Both the position numbers and the translations under genes were made by a program. DNA of 64,000 nucleotides. Source: Spirochaetia bacterium. Lineage in GTDB: Bacteria; Spirochaetota; Spirochaetia; DSM-2461. The stretch lies in contig OY764216.1 of the NCBI GenBank assembly GCA_963668315.1, positions 960,001 through 1,024,000 of the forward strand, read 5' to 3'. Positions 43,175-54,192 of the stretch are shown piece after piece (positions within the stretch are counted from its first letter, which is position 1; each line of letters begins with the position of its first letter). Under the pieces are notes generated by a model that saw only the letters and a program-made list of their open reading frames with translations, searched no databases and had not been told where the DNA came from.

Positions 43175-45003
43175 TTAAATAAACAGACTGACGATCTCCG
43201 GCGGATTTCCGTCCTTGAGCCGGACCAGGCCCCGGTTTGACAGATGAAGCTCGGGCAGAACCACCAGCCCCAGCAGGCTTATGGTCATCTCCGCCGAATC
43301 GTGGGGGCAGCCCGCAGCTTTTAGGGCCTCCTCTACATCGGCAAGATTCGCCGCCACTTCGGAGACGGGCCTGGGACTCATGAGCCCGGCAAAGGGAAGA
43401 GGCAGGCTGGCCAGAACCTTACCGTCCTTTACTACGGCCAAACCGCCCCCCGATTCGATAAGGGTGTTGGCTGCCATTGTCATCGCCTTCCTGTCCGTCC
43501 CCAGAACCAGAAGATTATGGCAGTCGTGGGATACGGTGGAGGCATAGGCTGAGCCCGGAAGAAGGGACAGGCCCGAAATAAAAGCGTGGGACTTCCGGTT
43601 TTCCGGGGATACCTGCCGCTCGTGCCGGTAGATCATGGTCAGCTGAGCCAGATCCATGGAGGCATCGGGGGCGAGAACGCCCTCTTCTGGAATGAGCAAA
43701 GCGGATTTTTCCGGGTGAAAACCATCCCCGGGACCAGTTCTATCACACGGACTCCCACAGGCCTTCCGTCGTTTTCCCGGGGGGCCCCTACGGTAAAATC
43801 CTCTTCTTGCCGGGGAGAGATATGCATGGTCTTAAGCGCCCAGCCGGGATACTCCGCCGGGGGAATCTTTTCTGTCAGAAGCCCGTCCTCCGCCCGGAGC
43901 TTTCCGGCGGAAATGACCTTTTTCACATCGAAATCCTTCAGGTTGTCCACAAGAATCATATCCGCAGACCTTCCGGGAGCCAGAGAGCCTATCCAGCGGT
44001 CCATCCCCAGCAGCTGAGCGGCGTTGATGGTGGCCATCTGTATGGCTTTGAGGGAGGGTATCCCCTGGCGTACAGCTTCCCGGAGAACGCGGACCAGGTG
44101 CCCCTCCTCAAGGATCGTCCGGGACGTGACATCGTCGGTGACCAGGGTGAAGAACCGGCTGTCCAGTTCGGGATTATCCAGAAGGGCCGGTGCCAGGTTG
44201 GGCAGATCGAGCCAGGCCGAACCGTAGCGCATCTGAACATTCATGCCCCTGCCGGCCTTGGCCAGGGCTTCTTCGGCCGTAGTACTTTCGTGGCAGGCGG
44301 TCATTCCCGAGGCGATAAAGGCGTTAAGGCCGCCTGCCGTATCGGGGGAAGAGTAATGTCCTGTCATGACGACATCAGCCTTCAGCCCCTCCGCCCCAAT
44401 GGCGTGAGCGTGGGAGTCGCCGAAGATTACCCCGGGGAAATTCATCTGTTCTCCCTGCAGCGCGGCCCATCCCTTTTCATAGGCTTCCCGGACATTCTCC
44501 GCATTGATAAGGGCTCCTCCGTCCTCCAGTCCCGGAAGGGAGGGAACGCAGACCGGCATGGCCGTCAGTACATTAAGGGGGAGGTCCTTAGTCTTCTCGT
44601 GAAACAATTCTACCGCTTTGAGCCCCAGAACATTGGTCATTTCGTGGATGTCGGGACAAATCGTCGTCGTTCCCTGGGGCAGTACGGCAGCGGCGAAAGA
44701 GACTGGATCCACCATGGAGCTTTCCACATGCATATGACTGTCTATCAGGCCGGGAAGGAGGAAGAGTCCCCGGCCATCGATTATGACCGTTTCCTTATCC
44801 GTCGGATAGGAACCCGTGTCCCCGATGAAGGCGATGATCCCCTTATAGGCGACCAGACCGGTATTTGCTTCCACCGTTCCCAGATGGACATTGACCAGCT
44901 GGATATTCTTAATAACGAGATCGCCGGCTTTCCTGCCCATGGCAACGGCGGCCAGATCTGCCGTAACAGAGGCTTTATGGGTGAGAAATTCCCGATAGGT
45001 CAT
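43175..45003 (-). pseudogene. ade: Adenine deaminase interrupted by a one-base frameshift near 43706-43712 (pseudogene or sequence error)
   Basis: ORF 43639-45003 carries DSHMHVESS, HES and VTDD; overlapping ORF 43175-43699 carries the C-terminal ASTVSHDCHNL and LPLPFAGLMS. Adding one base joins them. Confidence 0.85.
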
Positions 45004-45716: not shown

Positions 45717-45743
45717 AAAAACCCGGAGCAAAAACTCCGGGTT
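45717..45743 (-). terminator. Terminator downstream of hcp, possibly bidirectional
   Basis: AACCCGGAG-caaaaa-CTCCGGGTT with a T tract on the minus strand. Confidence 0.75.
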
Positions 45744-45774: not shown

Positions 45775-47394
45775 TTAGCCTACCATTTTCGCTATGTCCT
45801 CTTCCACTTCGCCGATACCGGCGATCCCGAATTTCTCGATGAGCACGCTGGCCACGGTAGGAGAAAGGAACGCCGGGAGAGTGGGGCCCAGGTGGATGTT
45901 CTTCACGCCCAGATGGAGAAGGGCCAGCAGAACGGTGACCGCCTTCTGTTCGTACCAGGCGATGTTGTAAACGATGGGGAGCTCGTTGATGTCCTCCAGC
46001 TCGAATACTTCCTTGAGCTTGAGGGCGATAAGGGCCAGGGAGAAGCTGTCGTTGCACTGCCCCGCATCGAGAACGCGGGGAATCCCGCCGATATCGCCCA
46101 GGTTCAGTTTGTTGTAGCGGTATTTGGCGCAGCCCGCGGTGAGGATGATCGTATCCTCAGGCAGGGCTTCGGCGAAATCTTTGTAGTAGTCCCGGCCCTT
46201 CTGGCGGCCGTCACATCCGCCCATGACGACGAACTTTTTCACTGCTCCCGATTTTACCGCGTCCACGACTTTATCGGCCAGGGCGAATACCTGTTCGTGG
46301 GCGAATCCGCCGACGATGGAGCCGGTCTCGATTTCCGTGGGGGAGGGGAGGGTTTTGGCCAGGGCGATGACTTCGGAGAAATCCTTGGCGCCGCCTTCGC
46401 TGCGGGGGGCAATGGCTTTCACGCCGGGAAAGGCCACGTTGCCCGTGTTGAACATCCGGTCGATGTAGGAGGCCTTGGGGGGAACCAGGCAGTTGGTGGT
46501 CATGACGATGGGACCGTTGAAGGTGGCGAATTCCTTATCCTGAAGCCACCAGGCATTACCGTAGTTACCGGCGAAGTGATCATACTTCTTGAAGGCGGGA
46601 TAGTAGTGGGCGGGGAGCATTTCCCCATGGGTGTAAACATCCACTCCGGTGCCTTCGGTCTGCTTGAGCAGCTCTTCCATGTCCTTGAGGTCGTGCCCTG
46701 AGATCAGGATGGCCGGATTGTTCCGCACGCCTATGTTCACCGCGGTGATTTCCGGGTTACCGTAGGTTTCGGTGTTGGCCTTGTCCAGGGTGGCCATGGC
46801 GGTGACGGCTACTTCGCCTGCTTTAAGGACCAGGGCGATCATTTCGTCCACGGGAAGATCCTTGAGGGTGGAGGCCAATCCTTCGGCCATGAAGTCGTAA
46901 ATGGATTGATCTTCGTAGCCTAGAACGGCGGCGTGATCCGTGTAGGCGGCGATGCCCTTGAGGCCGTACACCAGGAGTTCCCGCAGGGAGCGGACGTCTT
47001 CGTTTTCTGTGGAGAGCACGCCGACGGCCACGGCCTTGAGGAGCATTTTCTCCTTGCTGTCCGCCGTCCAGAGGGCCGCGTCGGGGAGATCGCCCGTGAC
47101 GGCGTAACGGGCTTTCAGATCCTCCCGCAGCTTGAGCCCCTGGCTGATGATGTCAGCCAGCTGATCGTCGTCGAAGCTGACGTTGGTGACCGTGGTAAAG
47201 AGGGCTTTGGTCATATAATCGGCCGCATCCTTTTCCACTTTGCCGGCTTTTTCGGTAAGGAAGGCGATGCCCTTGACCGTGTAGATCAGAAGGTCCTGCA
47301 GGTTGGCCGTATCGCCTTTCTTTCCGCAGATGCCGTTAACTGTACAACCGCTGTTCTTTGCCGTTTCCTGACACTGATAACAAAACATACTCAT
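45775..47394 (-). CDS. hcp: Hybrid cluster protein (hydroxylamine/NO reductase), strict-anaerobe type
   Basis: MFCYQCQET, with Cys spacing C-x2-C-x8-C-x5-C; SGHD, THGEM, TTNC, GCD, GQCND and WYEQKA motifs. Confidence 0.97.
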
Positions 47395-47413
47395 ATGAAA
47401 ACTCCCTGGTTAA

Positions 47414-47656
47414 TTAATATTCCTTACCTGCGGCCATGACATTGGCCGGATCGAAGGCATGGCAGGGGGTGACTCCGTATACCATGCCGCATTCGGGGCA
47501 TTTGTCTTCGAACGACGCCATTTCAAAACGGCCCCCGCACTCCACGCACTCTATTTCCATGGGCATGGGCATCGGCTGATCGGCGAATCCCATCATTCTT
47601 ACCTTATCTACTACCTGTTTTCCGTCGGTGAACGAACCGGAACATCCTTCGTGCAT
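47414..47656 (-). CDS. 80-aa metal-binding protein with HypA-like signatures
   Basis: AAGGAG SD before MHEGCSG; C-x2-C-x12-CP-x-C (CVEC...CPEC) plus TPCH. Confidence 0.8.
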   Translation of the reverse strand: MHEGCSGSFTDGKQVVDKVRMMGFADQPMPMPMEIECVECGGRFEMASFEDKCPECGMVYGVTPCHAFDPANVMAAGKEY

Positions 47657-47693
47657 TTTCTTTCTCCTTGAGAGCTGATTTTCGGGAAGGGGA

Positions 47694-47725
47694 GGTGTGT
47701 TAAATTGAAAACTATTTAACACACC
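47694..47725. repeat. Perfect 12-bp inverted repeat inside the hcp cluster
   Basis: GGTGTGTTAAAT-tgaaaact-ATTTAACACACC. Confidence 0.85.
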
Positions 47726-47763
47726 CTATTCCCGGTGTTATGCCGTTTTCAACCTAACGGCTC

Positions 47764-48774
47764 TTATTGAATTTCCTCTAAGATCTCGCCGTTCCGCAGT
47801 TTGGTCCGGTAAGCCAGCAGTCTTCTATCCATCTCCTCCAGAGTCGTGAGGATTTCCCTCTCCTCGGCGGTGGTTTCGATGATTTTGTTAATCCCCCCGT
47901 TCTTGATGACGATTCTCTTGTCGCCCATAAGGGCCAGAATGGGATCGTGGGTGGCCATGAGGACCACTTTCTCTTCGCTCAGAAGCAGATCCAGGGCCTG
48001 TTTCCTGTCTATCCCCGCATTCTCAATCTCGTCGATCAGAATGATGGGGGACTTGCTCAGAATGGCCGTGTCGGCGATCATCAATGCCCGGGACTGACCG
48101 CCTGAAAGACTGGTAATGGGCGTATCCCGGCTGAACCGTTCCCCGGCCAGCTTGTTGGCGTTCTCGATGATCCGTCCAATGACTTCTTCACGGTTCTCCA
48201 CCATGCGGCTCTCGGCATGGAGTTCCACGAACTCGTAGACGGTCAGGTCCATGACGAAGTTCATGTTCTGGGAGATCTGGGCCACCAGCTTGTCCTTGGT
48301 GGAAAAGCGCCACTTCTTATCGGGCTCCGCACCGTTGATCAGCACCGTCCGGGAAGTGGGAGTGTCGTGCTGGGCAACCCACTCTATGTCTCCCAGAAGG
48401 CGGCTCTTCCCCGAGCCGGTGGGGCCCACGATGCAGATGATCTCTCCCTGCCGGATGGTCAATTCCTCAAAGTTTTCCCTATCTCCCGACTTATCCGTAC
48501 CGGGGAGGATGGTGATATGCTGAACCTTGTCCTCCTCGCGGCCCAGAAAGGCGTTCATCTGCTTGATGAATTCCTCCAGCTGCCGGTAATGGTGCTCCAC
48601 GTCAATCGCCATCTCTTCCCGGGTCTCTTCGTCGAAGCGGCCGAAGTACTCCTCCAGGGTGATCTCCCTATCCCCCTCCAGGGGCAGATTGTTATCGGCG
48701 AAGTAGGATGTTACGAAGGGATAGCGCTCCAGAATATCATTCAGTTTTTTCAGCCTGATGGTTTGAGCATTCAT
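47764..48774 (-). CDS. ABC-type ATPase with an extra N-terminal domain
   Basis: GPTGSGKS, LSGGQ, ILIDE and ATHD; N-terminus LNDILERYPFVTSYF resembles DUF1858. Confidence 0.88.
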   Translation of the reverse strand: MNAQTIRLKKLNDILERYPFVTSYFADNNLPLEGDREITLEEYFGRFDEETREEMAIDVEHHYRQLEEFIKQMNAFLGREEDKVQHITILPGTDKSGDRENFEELTIRQGEIICIVGPTGSGKSRLLGDIEWVAQHDTPTSRTVLINGAEPDKKWRFSTKDKLVAQISQNMNFVMDLTVYEFVELHAESRMVENREEVIGRIIENANKLAGERFSRDTPITSLSGGQSRALMIADTAILSKSPIILIDEIENAGIDRKQALDLLLSEEKVVLMATHDPILALMGDKRIVIKNGGINKIIETTAEEREILTTLEEMDRRLLAYRTKLRNGEILEEIQ

Positions 48775-49469
48775 TGGCCTTCCTCCATTTTCATCTTTCT
48801 CACGTTGCCCATCTGGTACTTCTCGCCGATACGGGTTTCGCCCAGGCAGTAGGAGCAGAGGGCCGAGGGCATGGGAAAGCGCAGTTCCCTGCCCACCAGG
48901 GTCTCTATGTCTTCCGCTTCATCGAAGAGCAGAGTACTCAGCTCGTAGCTGCCCTGTCCGGTCAGGCCGTTCACGTGAATGATCACCGCCCCCGGATTGA
49001 CCGTGTTCACCCGGCTGGCGAAAACTTCCCGTTCCGCCTGGGAGACGATGTCCCCCTTGGTGATTACCACGATGTCGGCGCTCTTGAGCATGGGGCCTAT
49101 TTTCTTAGGCGTGTTGATGCCGCTCAGATTGTCGATGACGCAGACCGCCTTGATGCCTTTCACGTAGGGGGAACAGCGGTTGCAGAGCCCGGCCGATTCG
49201 CTGACGAGCAGATCGAACCCTTCATCCACGCCCCATTTGGTCACTTCCTCTATATTGCTGATGAAGTAGTGATCCGGACAGAGGGCGCCGGAGAGCCCCT
49301 TCTTGACGGGAATGCCCGCCTTTTCGTAAAGCTTGTCGTCGTCCGTGTAGAGGCAGTCGAACTTGGCCACCGCCGTCTTCACGTTCCTCTGTTTAAGCGA
49401 TTCAATCGTTTTCAATATAACGGCGGTTTTTCCTGAAGAGGGAGGGCCCGATATGGTTACCAGATTCAC
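48771..49469 (-). CDS. G3E-family (HypB/UreG-like) P-loop GTPase, Cys-rich
   Basis: GPPSSGKT, KFDCL, LCPDH, ESAGLCNRC, TKGD and CSYC motifs. Confidence 0.88.
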   Translation of the reverse strand: MNLVTISGPPSSGKTAVILKTIESLKQRNVKTAVAKFDCLYTDDDKLYEKAGIPVKKGLSGALCPDHYFISNIEEVTKWGVDEGFDLLVSESAGLCNRCSPYVKGIKAVCVIDNLSGINTPKKIGPMLKSADIVVITKGDIVSQAEREVFASRVNTVNPGAVIIHVNGLTGQGSYELSTLLFDEAEDIETLVGRELRFPMPSALCSYCLGETRIGEKYQMGNVRKMKMEEGQ

Positions 49470-50705
49470 TTACGCCTCCTGAGCCGCGGCCTGTTCGAAG
49501 ACCGATTCGCAGTGGGAAATCAGCTTGCTGATATCCTGTGAGTAGATATAATCCCAGCCGAGCCACATGAAGGGGGCCTTCGCCGGAAGCCGATTGTCCA
49601 CGTCGGGGTGGACCGTGGGAAAAAGACCGTTGTGGGCCAGCACCGTTCCCACTTCTTCGGAAGCGAAAAAATCGATAACCGGCTGGAGCTTCTCCCTTTT
49701 CTCCTTCTTCGCGAGCAGGAAGATAGGGCTGATGATCGCGCCGTCCTCGGGCCAGACCGCCTCCATGTCTCCCTCGGGGCGGACCATTTTGGTAAAGAAG
49801 TAGGGCATGATGGTGACTGCCGGTTTGTTATCCTTCTTCCGGTCGCTTTTCACCATCTGCGAGGGGTGGAGCGATTCGAGCAGATTCCTCCCCAGCCGGG
49901 CCACTCCTTCGTCTCCGTACTTCTTGTGGATATTCAGGAGGATGCCGTTGAAAAGGTCAAAGTCGCCCACCGGCAGGGAGATGCGGTTTTCGAAGACCGG
50001 ATCCATAATGTCTTCCCAGGTACGGGGTACGGGTACATTCCCGGGCAGGGTTCCCAGCTCCTTCTTATTGATGAGAAAGACAGCCGGCACCACGCTGATG
50101 ATCGAGTAGTGGCCCTGGGGATCCTTCAGGTCCAGGCTGTCGAAGGAGGAGTTGAATCTCTCCCGGCCGGAGAAATCGCCGAAGGTTCCCTGCTTTTTGA
50201 ACCGGCCGATCATCTGCTCGTCGAAGAACATATCGAAGCCGGCGGAGATAAACAGGTCGGGCAGTTCCGCCGCGTCATCGATTCCCTTGATATTGTTTTC
50301 TACCCAGTCGAGCCCCATGGACGCCGCCTTGAGTTCGTGGCTGACGTTCAGGCCGGGGGTTTCCTCGAGGAATCGGTTGAACTCTTCCAGCAGGGGTATG
50401 CGGACGGGACAGGGGAGCAGGCCGACCACTTTCACTTCGGCCGCGCTGTTTTCCCCGTTTTCCGCCAGGGTCAGGTCGGTCTTGTCTTCGGCCTTTTCTA
50501 TGGCTTCGGTCAGTAAGCGGGCGAAGCTGTCGTAATCCAGCTGTTTGAGGGTCAGGGCCATCTCCAGGCTTACCGATTTACCGAACTGCTCCCGTTTGGC
50601 GGGATCGGCCATATGGGCGAAGCCGTTGGAGGTAAACACGGGAATCGTCCGGGGATATTTCTCGGCGATTTCCAGTAACGTGTCGGCTTTGGTGAAATAC
50701 TCCAT
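49470..50705 (-). CDS. ABC substrate-binding-fold protein with a DUF1858-like N-terminus and no signal peptide
   Basis: N-terminus LLEIAEKYPRTIPVF; LPCPVR; PRTWED and VWPEDGAIISP as in iron/polyamine SBP folds. No hydrophobic leader. Confidence 0.78.
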   Translation of the reverse strand: MEYFTKADTLLEIAEKYPRTIPVFTSNGFAHMADPAKREQFGKSVSLEMALTLKQLDYDSFARLLTEAIEKAEDKTDLTLAENGENSAAEVKVVGLLPCPVRIPLLEEFNRFLEETPGLNVSHELKAASMGLDWVENNIKGIDDAAELPDLFISAGFDMFFDEQMIGRFKKQGTFGDFSGRERFNSSFDSLDLKDPQGHYSIISVVPAVFLINKKELGTLPGNVPVPRTWEDIMDPVFENRISLPVGDFDLFNGILLNIHKKYGDEGVARLGRNLLESLHPSQMVKSDRKKDNKPAVTIMPYFFTKMVRPEGDMEAVWPEDGAIISPIFLLAKKEKREKLQPVIDFFASEEVGTVLAHNGLFPTVHPDVDNRLPAKAPFMWLGWDYIYSQDISKLISHCESVFEQAAAQEA

Positions 50706-50725
50706 ATTGCTTATACTCCTAAAGT

Positions 50726-50746
50726 GGTACCGTAATACCTAAATAA
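50726..50746. promoter_or_regulatory. Putative Rrf2 operator, copy 2
   Basis: GGTACCGTAATACCTAAATAA, identical to 51185-51205 at 20 of 21 positions. Confidence 0.75.
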
Positions 50747-50760
50747 ATCGAAATAAAAAA

Positions 50761-51156
50761 TCAGAAATCGGAAAGTTTGATTTCCCTGTACGTTTCGTAG
50801 ATATCCTTGGAAATCCGATGGATGTTTCTGGTGAAGATGCAGTGGTGGAAGGCGCATTTATCCTTGCCGAAGGGGCAGGCGCCCGTGGATACCGGGCCTT
50901 CCATGGCTTCCAGAATATCGAGGAAACTTATCTCGTCGGCGGGCTTGCTCAGAATGAATCCTCCCGAAGGCCCTCGGACCGATTTGACGAATCCCGCCTT
51001 GCTCAGTTTCTGAAAAACCTTGGCCAGGTGGGCCTGGGAAGCATCAAGTTCTTCGGCCAGATGTTTGACGGTGAGCCGTTCCGGCTGTTCTTTGGCGATA
51101 AGAGCCAGGCTGTGCATGGCCAGATAGGCGCCTTCTGACAGATTGACCAGATTCAT
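50761..51156 (-). CDS. Rrf2-family transcriptional regulator with three C-terminal Cys
   Basis: HLAKVFQKL and SVRGPSGGF motifs; CPFGKDKCAFHHC. Confidence 0.93.
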   Translation of the reverse strand: MNLVNLSEGAYLAMHSLALIAKEQPERLTVKHLAEELDASQAHLAKVFQKLSKAGFVKSVRGPSGGFILSKPADEISFLDILEAMEGPVSTGACPFGKDKCAFHHCIFTRNIHRISKDIYETYREIKLSDF

Positions 51157-51182
51157 GATTCCTCCCTGTTTAATTTGTTATA

Positions 51183-51205
51183 TAGGTACTGTAATACCTA
51201 AATAA
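51183..51205. promoter_or_regulatory. Putative Rrf2 operator, copy 1, overlapping the rrf2 promoter
   Basis: Palindrome TAGGTA-N6-TACCTA over the -10 region of a minus-strand TTGACA (51212-51217) promoter. Confidence 0.78.
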
Positions 51206-52372: not shown

Positions 52373-52423
52373 TATCCCTTCCCGAGGGATTGGCAGAGCG
52401 GTTTGAGGAATAAGGAGAATAGA

Positions 52424-53269
52424 ATGATCAGGAAAATCCAAGTTGATATTGAGCGATCCGGGCTGTGGATGGACGGGGACGTCACCTATGCCCGGGTGGA
52501 CAGCTGGTACGGGCACACCACGAAAGATCTGAAGATGGATATCATCTATCCCCACGAAGGACGGGAAAAACCCTGGCCCTGCCTGGTCTGGATCTGCGGC
52601 GGCGCCTGGCTGAGGATGGACCAGCATGCCCATGTGCCCAACTTAATGGAACTGGCGAGGGAAGGGTTCGTCATCGCAAGCGTCCAGTACAGGCTGACCA
52701 ACGAAGTTCCCTTCCCCGGGCCTCTGGAGGACGTAAAGGCCGCCATCCGTTTTCTGCGTAAAAATGCGGACAGATATAATATCGATGCGGACCGTTTCGG
52801 CGTCATGGGGGAATCGGCGGGAGGCCATCTGGCCGGCATGACGGCTGTGACGGGGCACATACGTGATTTTGATAAGGGGGAGCATCTGGAATACAGCAGC
52901 GCGGTGCAGGCCGCCAGCCCCTGGTATATGGTTTCCGACCTGCTCTCCTTCCCCCCTCTCGCCGACCCGGGGTTTTCCCCCGAGGCCCGTCTGATCGAGG
53001 CCCTGCCCGAAAAGAATCCCGGGCTGGCCAAAGCCGCCAGCCCCGTCACCTATGTCTCTTCGGACTGCCCGCCCTGTCTGCTGTTCCACGGCACGGAGGA
53101 TAAAACCGTTCCCCATGATCAGAGTGTTCTTTTTCACGACGCTCTGGAAAAGGCCGGGGTTCCCGTCACCCTTTACAGCGTGGAAGGGGCTGACCACGGG
53201 GATCGAGAATTCTATCAGAAACCGGTGTTGGATCTGATGGCCGCATTTTTTAAAGAGCAGCTTTCCTGA
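52424..53269 (+). CDS. Alpha/beta hydrolase (HSL-like esterase), copy 1
   Basis: CGGAW, GESAG, HGTED and GADH motifs; ATG 52424 after AAGGAG. Confidence 0.9.
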   Translation: MIRKIQVDIERSGLWMDGDVTYARVDSWYGHTTKDLKMDIIYPHEGREKPWPCLVWICGGAWLRMDQHAHVPNLMELAREGFVIASVQYRLTNEVPFPGPLEDVKAAIRFLRKNADRYNIDADRFGVMGESAGGHLAGMTAVTGHIRDFDKGEHLEYSSAVQAASPWYMVSDLLSFPPLADPGFSPEARLIEALPEKNPGLAKAASPVTYVSSDCPPCLLFHGTEDKTVPHDQSVLFHDALEKAGVPVTLYSVEGADHGDREFYQKPVLDLMAAFFKEQLS

Positions 53270-53346
53270 AAATATCCGGATGAATAGTGGTCCCCCCGAT
53301 TTCTCATCCTGTGTTACAATGGTAATGCATAATCAAGGGGGATCTT

Positions 53347-54192
53347 ATGATCAGGAATATTAAAATGGAATGGGAAAGGCCCGGACTGTGGATGGACGGA
53401 GACGTGACTTACGGTCAGGCCGACGCCTGGTTCGGCCATACGTCGCAGGATCTGAAGCTGGATATAATCTATCCCCATGAAGGACAGGACAAGCCCTGGC
53501 CCTGCATCGTCTGGATATGCGGAGGCGGATGGCTGCAGATGGATCATCACGCCCATGTGCCCAATTTAGCCGATCTGGCGAGGGAGGGCTTTGTCGTGGC
53601 GAGCGTTCAATACCGCCTCTCCAACGATATCCCCTTTCCCGGCCCCCTGGAGGATGTCAAAGCCGCCATACGGTATTTGAGGAAAAACGCCTCCCGGTAT
53701 AATATCGATCCCGACAAATTCGGCGTCAGCGGAGAATCGGCCGGCGGCCAGCTGGCGGGCATGGTGGCCGTGACAGGGACACATAGGGAATTTGATAAGG
53801 GAGAGCATCTGGAATACAGCAGCGCCGTTCAGGCCGCCTGCCCCTGGTATATGGTTTCCGATTTGAGCGCCTTTCCCCCCGGGGACAAGCCCGGTCTCTC
53901 TCCGGAGGCCCGGATGATCGGCGACTTGCCCTCGGACAGCCCGGATCTGGTGAAAAGGGCCAGCCCCGTCAGCTATGTTTCGGCCAACTGCCCGCCCTGT
54001 CTTCTTTTTCACGGAACCGACGATCATGTCGTGCCCTACGACCAGAGCATCCGTTTTCATGACGCCCTGGAAAAGGCGGGGGTCCCGGTAACTCTGTACA
54101 GCGTGGAAGGAGCCGACCATGCGGATGAGAACTTCTTCCAGAAGCCGGTGATGGATATTATGACGGCGTTCTTCAAGGAACAGCTTCAGTAG
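53347..54192 (+). CDS. Alpha/beta hydrolase (HSL-like esterase), copy 2
   Basis: CGGGW, GESAG, HGTDD and GADH motifs; same length as copy 1. Confidence 0.9.
   Translation: MIRNIKMEWERPGLWMDGDVTYGQADAWFGHTSQDLKLDIIYPHEGQDKPWPCIVWICGGGWLQMDHHAHVPNLADLAREGFVVASVQYRLSNDIPFPGPLEDVKAAIRYLRKNASRYNIDPDKFGVSGESAGGQLAGMVAVTGTHREFDKGEHLEYSSAVQAACPWYMVSDLSAFPPGDKPGLSPEARMIGDLPSDSPDLVKRASPVSYVSANCPPCLLFHGTDDHVVPYDQSIRFHDALEKAGVPVTLYSVEGADHADENFFQKPVMDIMTAFFKEQLQ

Follow-up and report, generated by a model that had tools for sequence, protein, structure and literature searches.

Six minus-strand open reading frames (ORFs) were identified between positions 45775 and 51156 of the window, a 64,000-nucleotide stretch of a Spirochaetia bacterium genome (assembly GCA_963668315.1, contig OY764216.1, positions 960,001 to 1,024,000). 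In order of transcription, they encode an Rrf2-family regulator, a protein with the fold of solute-binding proteins (SBPs), a Cys-rich G3E GTPase, an ATP-binding cassette (ABC) ATPase, a small CxxC protein, and the hybrid cluster protein Hcp, an enzyme of nitric oxide defence (Table 1). The initial annotation, made from the sequence alone, had read them as an rrf2-led cluster dedicated to building or repairing the metalloclusters of Hcp. Its description of the locus was accurate: the six genes are co-oriented, the Rrf2 protein has three cysteines (Cys94, Cys101, and Cys106), and no permease gene is found among the six. The intergenic gaps are 55, 0, -4, 107, and 19 bp, so that the middle three genes abut (SBP and GTPase genes, 0 bp) or overlap (GTPase and ATPase genes, -4 bp). 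The six genes form a genuine operon. One sigma70-like promoter was found in the region, 5' of rrf2, and operator 1 overlaps its -10 hexamer and is predicted to be the site of Rrf2 autorepression. The terminator-like assignment of the hairpin 3' of hcp is based on its position, as the total count in the terminator scan was at chance level. The region of the spacer between the ATPase and CxxC-protein genes (126 nt) has a folding energy of -36.2 kcal/mol (z = -4.7; 0 of 200 shuffles equally stable), and its strong hairpin is possibly an mRNA stability or processing element. A second hairpin is present in the same 107-bp spacer (47742 to 47761), and the two may set differing mRNA levels for the CxxC-protein and hcp genes relative to the upstream genes.

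Table 1. Positions in the window of the operon genes and associated sequence elements
Feature	Position	Strand	Description
rrf2	50761-51156	-	PF02082; Rrf2-family regulator, 131 aa
SBP gene	49470-50705	-	DUF1858 + SBP_bac_6, 411 aa
GTPase gene	48771-49469	-	CobW/HypB/UreG nucleotide-binding domain, 232 aa, GTG start
ABC ATPase gene	47764-48774	-	ABC_tran, 336 aa
CxxC-protein gene	47414-47656	-	80 aa; zinc-ribbon/rubredoxin-like; no Pfam or NCBIfam family over cut-off
hcp	45775-47394	-	TIGR01703, 742 bits (cut-off, 361); full-length, 539 aa
Palindromic operator 1	51183-51200	n/a	Core GGTA-N6-TACC at 51185-51198
Operator copy 2, directly 5' of SBP gene	50724-50741	n/a	Core at 50726-50739
Strong RNA hairpin, ATPase-CxxC spacer	47683-47734	-	Folding energy compared with shuffles
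Intrinsic-terminator-like hairpin 3' of hcp	45720-45743	-	10-bp stem, then T run

The SBP, GTPase, and ATPase genes (here called the trio) recur as a unit. Among 7236 candidate relatives of the GTPase, 6483 matched at E <= 1e-20. In a survey limited to the 80 nearest among 288 confirmed matches, which came from many phyla and often from short contigs, the SBP gene was located upstream of the GTPase gene in 79 loci, the ATPase gene was located downstream in 79, and the full order was found in 78, the two misses being contig ends. GTPase identity was 77 to 95% across Spirochaetota, Bacteroidota, Bacillota, Fusobacteriota, Cloacimonadota, and others, and the gene arrangement is not due to chance. 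The same 80 loci contained the CxxC-protein gene (64 loci), hcp (27), rrf2 (22), a Crp/Fnr-type gene (14), and a cupin gene (10). The plasmid collection gave a single match, an unannotated 2.1-Mb Fusobacterium record. A second trio (G000:C1:5206984-5209891; L001:8982-11892), whose products are 31, 57, and 51% identical to those of the first, is located in the same genome directly downstream of mnmA and far from hcp; the CxxC-protein gene, hcp, and any recognisable operator are all absent from that locus.

Three groups were distinguished in a FastTree phylogeny of 157 GTPases that used the HypB of the same genome as its root; short duplicate loci and two thirds of those from metagenomes were left out. 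Branch III, in which the partner is an Fe-S protein (support, 0.76), splits from the branch with SBP partners (0.92); within the latter, the hcp-linked group I is weakly supported (0.50), and group II, to which the second trio belongs, is a grade below it. The 91 branch I loci included the SBP gene in 89 cases, the ATPase gene in 90, the CxxC-protein gene in 63, and hcp in 33. The corresponding counts for the 17 branch II loci were 16, 17, 0, and 0. In branch III (101 loci, the metagenome loci being assigned by query), the ATPase gene was present in 86 loci, a gene for a PF04060 Fe-S protein in 82, and a NifS-type desulfurase gene in 42, and neither the SBP gene nor hcp was found. Across these 209 loci, the SBP and the Fe-S partner are mutually exclusive, and the CxxC-protein gene is restricted to branch I. 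The GTPase and ATPase are thus the invariant core, and the third subunit is either the cytoplasmic SBP-fold protein or the Fe-S protein, never both. The core is sometimes fused: two representative proteins, P0128 and P0130, are GTPase-ATPase fusions. In P0164, the GTPase has a C-terminal Cys-rich extension that resembles, by eye, the N terminus of the Fe-S partner.

The branches also differ in their neighbours. Branch II loci adjoin FecCD/TonB, NMT1-type, energy-coupling factor (ECF), and Nramp importers, as well as DUF364, DUF1847, methyltransferase, radical SAM, and NifU-like genes. The order in branch III is ATPase, GTPase, (NifS), and Fe-S protein, and some loci have cysK, metY, metA, cysDN, or a CymR-like rrf2 nearby. 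No desulfurase gene was found in the 91 branch I or 17 branch II loci, and no SufB- or SufD-like genes were seen among the recurrent neighbours. The branch I unit was therefore rejected as a SUF or ISC system, both the scaffold (SufB/IscU) and the desulfurase being missing. The branch III Fe-S protein (L103:6874-7521; L113 to L192) has, after its PF04060 N terminus, a strongly conserved, unnamed C-terminal domain with the motif Cys-Gly-Cys-Pro-x-Thr-His and no NCBIfam match.

The claims that the ABC pair is not a transporter and that the unit is soluble are well supported. The SBP lacks a signal peptide, as annotated: in an N-terminal hydropathy test, used in place of SignalP, its highest 12-residue value was 0.65, compared with 2.56 to 3.48 in 13 exported SBPs drawn from the same loci. 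None of the 69 branch I SBPs (maximum, 1.44) or 16 branch II SBPs (maximum, 1.66) reached the lowest control value. Among the 46 loci with sufficient flanking sequence, 6 had a co-oriented neighbour with multiple transmembrane (TM) segments, belonging to MFS, FTR1, PepSY-TM (two), chromate transporter, and one unnamed family; none of the six matched a Pfam ABC permease family. Permeases that do adjoin the trio are accompanied by a separate exported SBP, and at the six loci inspected for it (L108, L242, L243, L245, L248, and L272) also by a separate ATPase. The gene-neighbourhood survey proposed in the initial annotation thus found no permease in the unit, and a transporter with an adjacent permease was rejected on the lack of an ABC permease neighbour and of an SBP export signal. 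Together with the fusions and the order conserved in 78 of 80 loci, these data make it very unlikely that the trio is a transporter, with the sequence data being compatible with an unlinked permease. A 7-TM gene recurs in nine related Marinifilaceae loci, but in the opposite orientation and at a distance of about 3.6 kb, and it was not taken as a partner. At L108:7980-10113, a tandem pair of cytoplasmic SBP-fold genes is located 5' of the GTPase gene, inside a TonB/FecCD cluster.

Among Rrf2 homologues, Glu8, Cys94, and Cys106 are conserved in 23 of 23 sequences and His15 and Cys101 in 22 of 23, and the protein is likely an Fe-S-bearing stress sensor. It scored below the equivalog cut-offs of NsrR (45.1 versus 182) and IscR (64.9 versus 207.6) and below that of CymR. 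The SBP carries a DUF1858 domain (Pfam match) that the initial annotation had missed, as it had the DUF1858-like N terminus of the ATPase, the two operator copies, and the second trio. Its predicted model (predicted local distance difference test [pLDDT], 90.5) has the fold of SBPs for pyridoxal phosphate (PLP), Fe3+, and polyamines, and Foldseek aligned it with the ferric-binding SBPs FbpA/FutA (E values, 3e-13 to 5e-10; 12 to 17% identity). Of 64 aligned sequences, 63 retain Cys99, which is located where the SBP domain begins. The ATPase has intact Walker A, Q-loop, LSGGQ, Walker B, and H-loop motifs, an atypical D-loop (ENAG), and no membrane segment. Its N terminus weakly matches a DUF1858-like helical domain (probability, 38%; E value, 3e-4). 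Its nearest solved relatives are transporter ATPases, and SufC was absent from the 60 PDB entries and the 25 NCBIfam families listed as related to it.

In the GTPase, the P-loop GPPSSGKT and the ExxG motif at G3 (ESAG) are invariant in 71 sequences; the G4 guanine-specificity motif reads TKGD instead of NKxD, T137 and D140 being invariant and K138 present in at least 90%. Three Cys/His motifs are invariant (Cys64-Pro-Asp-His67, Cys96-x-Arg-Cys99, and Cys205-x-x-Cys208), and the five cysteines are invariant across all branches. Cys64-Pro-Asp-His67 aligns with the Cys-His of the HypB encoded in the same genome, and Cys96 and Cys99 flank the G3 Cys of HypB. (The G3E superfamily and its metal-site motifs are as defined in the accessible text of PMC11672702.) HypB is the nearest named family, but the GTPase is not HypB (TIGR00073, 51.8 versus 121.2 bits), nor UreG (TIGR00101, 25.2 versus 204.2; motif CPDH, not CPH), nor COG0523/CobW, as the CxCC motif and the C-terminal CobW_C domain are both missing. 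The CxxC protein has invariant His2, Cys5, Cys37, Cys53, Cys56, and Cys65, and Cys40 is found in 41 of 42 sequences. Position 3, after the His2 seen in all 42, is Asp in 28 and Glu in 13, with Cys5 in addition; the nickel site of HypA is an N-terminal Met-His-Glu. The protein has a faint likeness to HypA but was rejected as a member, since PF01155 (18.6 versus 28.9) matched the zinc ribbon only, the NCBIfam score was 14.4 versus 88.1, and its length is 80 amino acids versus about 113. A profile search against PDB sequences returned zinc-finger noise only, and an Atlas search returned the family's own clusters, with no named family at >= 0.9.

Of 21 homologous rrf2-led loci, 20 have an Rrf2 palindrome 5' of the regulator gene; the shuffle control, which covered the SBP upstream regions, gave an expectation of 1.7 in 66. 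When the genome was scanned with a matrix derived from 18 homologous sites, the two operators of the operon ranked first (rrf2) and fifth (SBP). Three other matches rank between them (G000:C1:3625755, 4529284, and 4538871), with no obvious stress gene 3'. One lies before an unrelated gene and two have no clear target, and because coherent targets are missing, no wider Rrf2 regulon is claimed here. Of 66 loci, 25 carry the HcpR2 motif, GTAAC-N4-GTTAC (Rodionov 2005, PMC1274295, accessible text), within the 200 bp 5' of the SBP gene (0.2 in shuffles), and these include loci without hcp nearby. At the window locus, the Rrf2 palindrome occupies its place. The stress link between the trio and hcp is thus predicted to be regulatory, through HcpR2 in many genomes and through the operon's own Rrf2 here.

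In the accessible part of PMC1274295, the Fusobacterium nucleatum HcpR2 site is assigned to FN0127, the Treponema regulon consists of hcp only, and the trio is absent from Table S1 and the text. In F. vincentii, an HcpR2 site identical base for base to that published site lies between an FN0127-like radical SAM gene and a divergent trio. FN0128, FN0129, and FN0130 are annotated as a spermidine/putrescine-binding protein, UreG, and an ABC ATPase, and, because these annotations match, FN0128-FN0130 are very probably the F. nucleatum trio. PMC4234264, in its accessible part, merely lists FN0130 among ABC transporters. Three related branch II loci (L245:583-8117, L246, and L247) combine the trio with a divergent Crp/Fnr gene, HcpR2-like and Fur-like sites, and a complete importer, and L245 and L246 additionally carry a DUF454-YgbA_NO fusion; they hint independently at control by nitric oxide (NO) and iron. 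The Fur-like boxes, seen 5' of three related branch II loci and one other, are a lead only, having been found with a consensus at four mismatches and no control.

The relation to Hcp was followed in three phylum samples. The GTPase was found in 20 of 301 Spirochaetota genomes (hcp in 93, both in 17), 29 of 251 Bacillota genomes (193 and 29), and 8 of 201 Desulfobacterota genomes (136 and 7). Overall, hcp was present in 53 of 57 genomes with the GTPase and in 369 of 696 others. The Fisher P values (3e-7, 3e-4, and 0.2, respectively) are overstated, because kin are not independent. Where the trio was not adjacent to hcp (50 of 53 such loci covered), hcp was found elsewhere in 39 of 50 genomes, many of which are incomplete metagenome-assembled genomes. 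The link to hcp drawn in the initial annotation therefore stands as adjacency (27 of 80 loci), co-occurrence, and shared HcpR2 sites, but not as exclusivity, the window's genome itself having two trios and one hcp.

We consider that the four middle genes probably encode a soluble, nucleotide-driven machine that delivers iron or an Fe-S unit to stress-damaged or new metalloproteins, with Hcp as a likely, though optional, client, and give this reading about an even chance of being right. From gene context, we infer that iron or Fe-S is the cargo that best fits all three branches, sulfur being the main alternative. Under NO or redox stress, Rrf2 would lose its cluster, and both operators would be freed. 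The SBP-fold protein would hold the cargo via Cys99, and the ATPase would drive its opening and release in a transporter-like manner. The GTPase would then accept the metal on its Cys/His motifs and release it upon GTP hydrolysis, as HypB and UreG do, and the CxxC protein would act as the last carrier or as an electron shuttle. The best reading of the operon is that the module was recruited into a nitrosative-stress regulon for cargo delivery or repair. A broader proposal, which is tentative and rather doubtful, is that this is a fourth kind of metallocluster machine of anaerobes, in which a G3E GTPase and an ABC ATPase work a cytoplasmic SBP in the manner of a transporter, but in solution and with no membrane, with swappable cargo subunits, one branch rebuilding NO-damaged Fe-S centres, including the Hcp hybrid cluster, and another feeding sulfur to coenzyme M and Cys/Met synthesis.

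Several observations weigh against the main reading. The context of branch III points to sulfur, not iron. The Tyr-Tyr pair of the Campylobacter jejuni ferric-binding protein aligns with Tyr302-Phe303 of the SBP, so the classical Fe3+ site appears to be lost, as judged by this pair among the ligands, and several branch II SBPs, read by eye, lack Cys99. The co-occurrence is overstated, as hcp is common in these phyla (77% and 68% in two samples) and kin are not independent. Finally, the only expression data found run counter to stress induction: FN0128-FN0130 drop together (log2 -0.76 to -1.10) when 50% serum is present, a condition interpreted by the authors as nitrosative stress (PMC13140499, Table S8, accessible part); F. 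nucleatum hcp is missing from the same table, and these data show co-regulation of the three genes, not induction.

A module that, wherever it occurs, is dedicated to Hcp as its maturase or repair system and makes or restores the hybrid cluster would agree with hcp lying inside 33 of 91 branch I loci and elsewhere in most other trio genomes, with all 29 Bacillota GTPase genomes having hcp, with the shared operators, and with the CxxC-protein gene, found only in branch I and 19 bp from hcp here. However, of the 422 genomes with hcp, 369 gave no match to the GTPase, branches II and III are never beside hcp, and genome G125, which is 99% complete, carries the trio but lacks hcp. The archaeal Hcp of Methanothermobacter marburgensis was made in Escherichia coli with an ISC plasmid only and crystallised (PMC10502027, accessible part); a DNA-level search of E. 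coli genomes for the GTPase-ATPase genes, which is a weak test, found none. As the co-occurrence is one-way and Hcp matures heterologously, Hcp maturation appears to be independent of the trio, which travels with Hcp. A dedicated role, as initially annotated, is not supported and we regard it as unlikely. Sulfur trafficking, in which the Cys-rich GTPase would carry persulfide or a sulfur-loaded cluster to supply Hcp or other clusters or would remove S-nitroso damage, draws on the NifS, cysK, metY/metA, cysDN, and CymR-like genes of branch III, on a trio of like description beside methanogen coenzyme M genes (PMC12068725, accessible part), on the position of the second trio after mnmA, and on the five invariant GTPase cysteines; it is made improbable by the lack of a desulfurase beside branch I and II loci and by the metal and cofactor importers around branch II, and the mnmA adjacency is a single case.

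The remaining explanations appear weaker still. A HypA/HypB-like chaperone pair with an ATP-driven feeder for a nickel enzyme is suggested by the proximity of the GTPase to HypB and by the Met-His-Glu/Asp start and HypA-like zinc ribbon of the CxxC protein, but family scores fall far below the cut-offs and no nickel enzyme recurs among the neighbours (urease and carbon monoxide dehydrogenase [CODH] being outside the survey). Since, of 52 trio genomes, only 12 contain a match to the [NiFe]-hydrogenase family, and the window's genome has none but does have a separate hypB-hypA pair, nickel is disfavoured as cargo, and this explanation is quite improbable. That pair lies in one run with a gene for a 929-residue protein (G000:C1:3165861-3169689), in a genome with no match to a [NiFe]-hydrogenase large subunit, possibly reflecting an unusual nickel client. 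Alternatively, the trio could be a sensor in the cytoplasm, or an energy-dependent switch, that detects a metabolite or metal via the SBP fold and signals stress instead of inserting a cargo. SBP folds also act as intracellular sensor domains, and L107 has an HTH-PBP regulator gene downstream of the trio; this role is nonetheless highly improbable, as the module has no output domain and the loci already have a regulator (Rrf2 in 22 of 80, Crp-type in 14 of 80). An ordinary ABC importer with its permease encoded elsewhere would account for the intact ABC motifs, the transporter ATPases as nearest solved relatives, and the complete importers adjoining many branch II loci; such an importer is hard to reconcile with an SBP that is never exported, adjoining importers equipped with a separate ATPase and SBP, the existence of GTPase-ATPase fusions, and a branch III with the same ATPase and no SBP, and it is the explanation to which we give least credence.

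Iron or Fe-S delivery would place the module, set apart from HypAB, UreG, CobW, and SUF, as kin to the nucleotide-driven metallocofactor chaperones. Like the metallochaperones HypA/HypB (hydrogenase) and UreE/UreG (urease), it has a small His2/zinc-ribbon partner and a G3E GTPase in which ExxG is accompanied by a Cys at G3 and by a Cys-His motif located between G2 and G3; it differs in its sub-cut-off scores, in the CxxC added at the C terminus, in its obligatory partners (an ABC ATPase and an SBP-fold protein), and in its lack of a co-occurring nickel client. SufC of SufBCD is a soluble ABC ATPase in Fe-S assembly, and AtwA (component A2) is a permease-less ABC ATPase; both resemble the module as permease-less ABC ATPases in metallocofactor assembly, but they use neither a G3E GTPase nor an SBP fold. 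The operator motif and stress context are shared with the HcpR2 regulon (hcp, frdX, and RIC/YtfE-type repair proteins), although YtfE consists of one di-iron protein and involves no NTPases. CooC, CooT, and CooJ mature Ni-CODH, a homologue of Hcp, and likewise represent NTPase-assisted cluster loading in the Hcp/CODH superfamily; however, CooC is a MinD-type ATPase for nickel, whereas Hcp is nickel-free and matures heterologously without such factors. The methanogen trio, an ATPase, a "Ni2+-binding GTPase", and a COG2000 Fe-S protein with a role stated to be unknown, has, by description alone, the same core as branch III, with an Fe-S protein as third subunit and a sulfur-metabolism context (PMC12068725, accessible part), and we infer from this that it belongs to branch III.

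In the open-access literature, we found no characterised machinery of such composition for Hcp, in agreement with the initial annotation, no description of the SBP-containing module, no experiment addressing cluster loading, and no accessory factor for Hcp; the trio is unmentioned in the accessible parts of PMC12915319, PMC5701242, PMC3543383, and PMC9012536. The repair of Fe-S enzymes under NO in strict anaerobes is poorly known, and the trio is mislabelled in databases as a polyamine transporter plus UreG. Its apparent presence as FN0128-FN0130 makes it directly testable in F. nucleatum, and, as the module would link the stress trio to the ATPase-GTPase-Fe-S trio beside the coenzyme M genes, a single biochemical study would inform both.

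The hcp gene of the operon is the only one in the genome (5.62 Mb, one contig). Elsewhere in the window, an amidohydrolase frame (adenine-deaminase-like by eye) is present as overlapping ORFs of 454 and 174 residues (43175 to 45003), possibly due to a frameshift or sequencing error, and two similar alpha/beta-hydrolase-like genes (288 and 281 residues) are found in tandem at 52403 to 54192.

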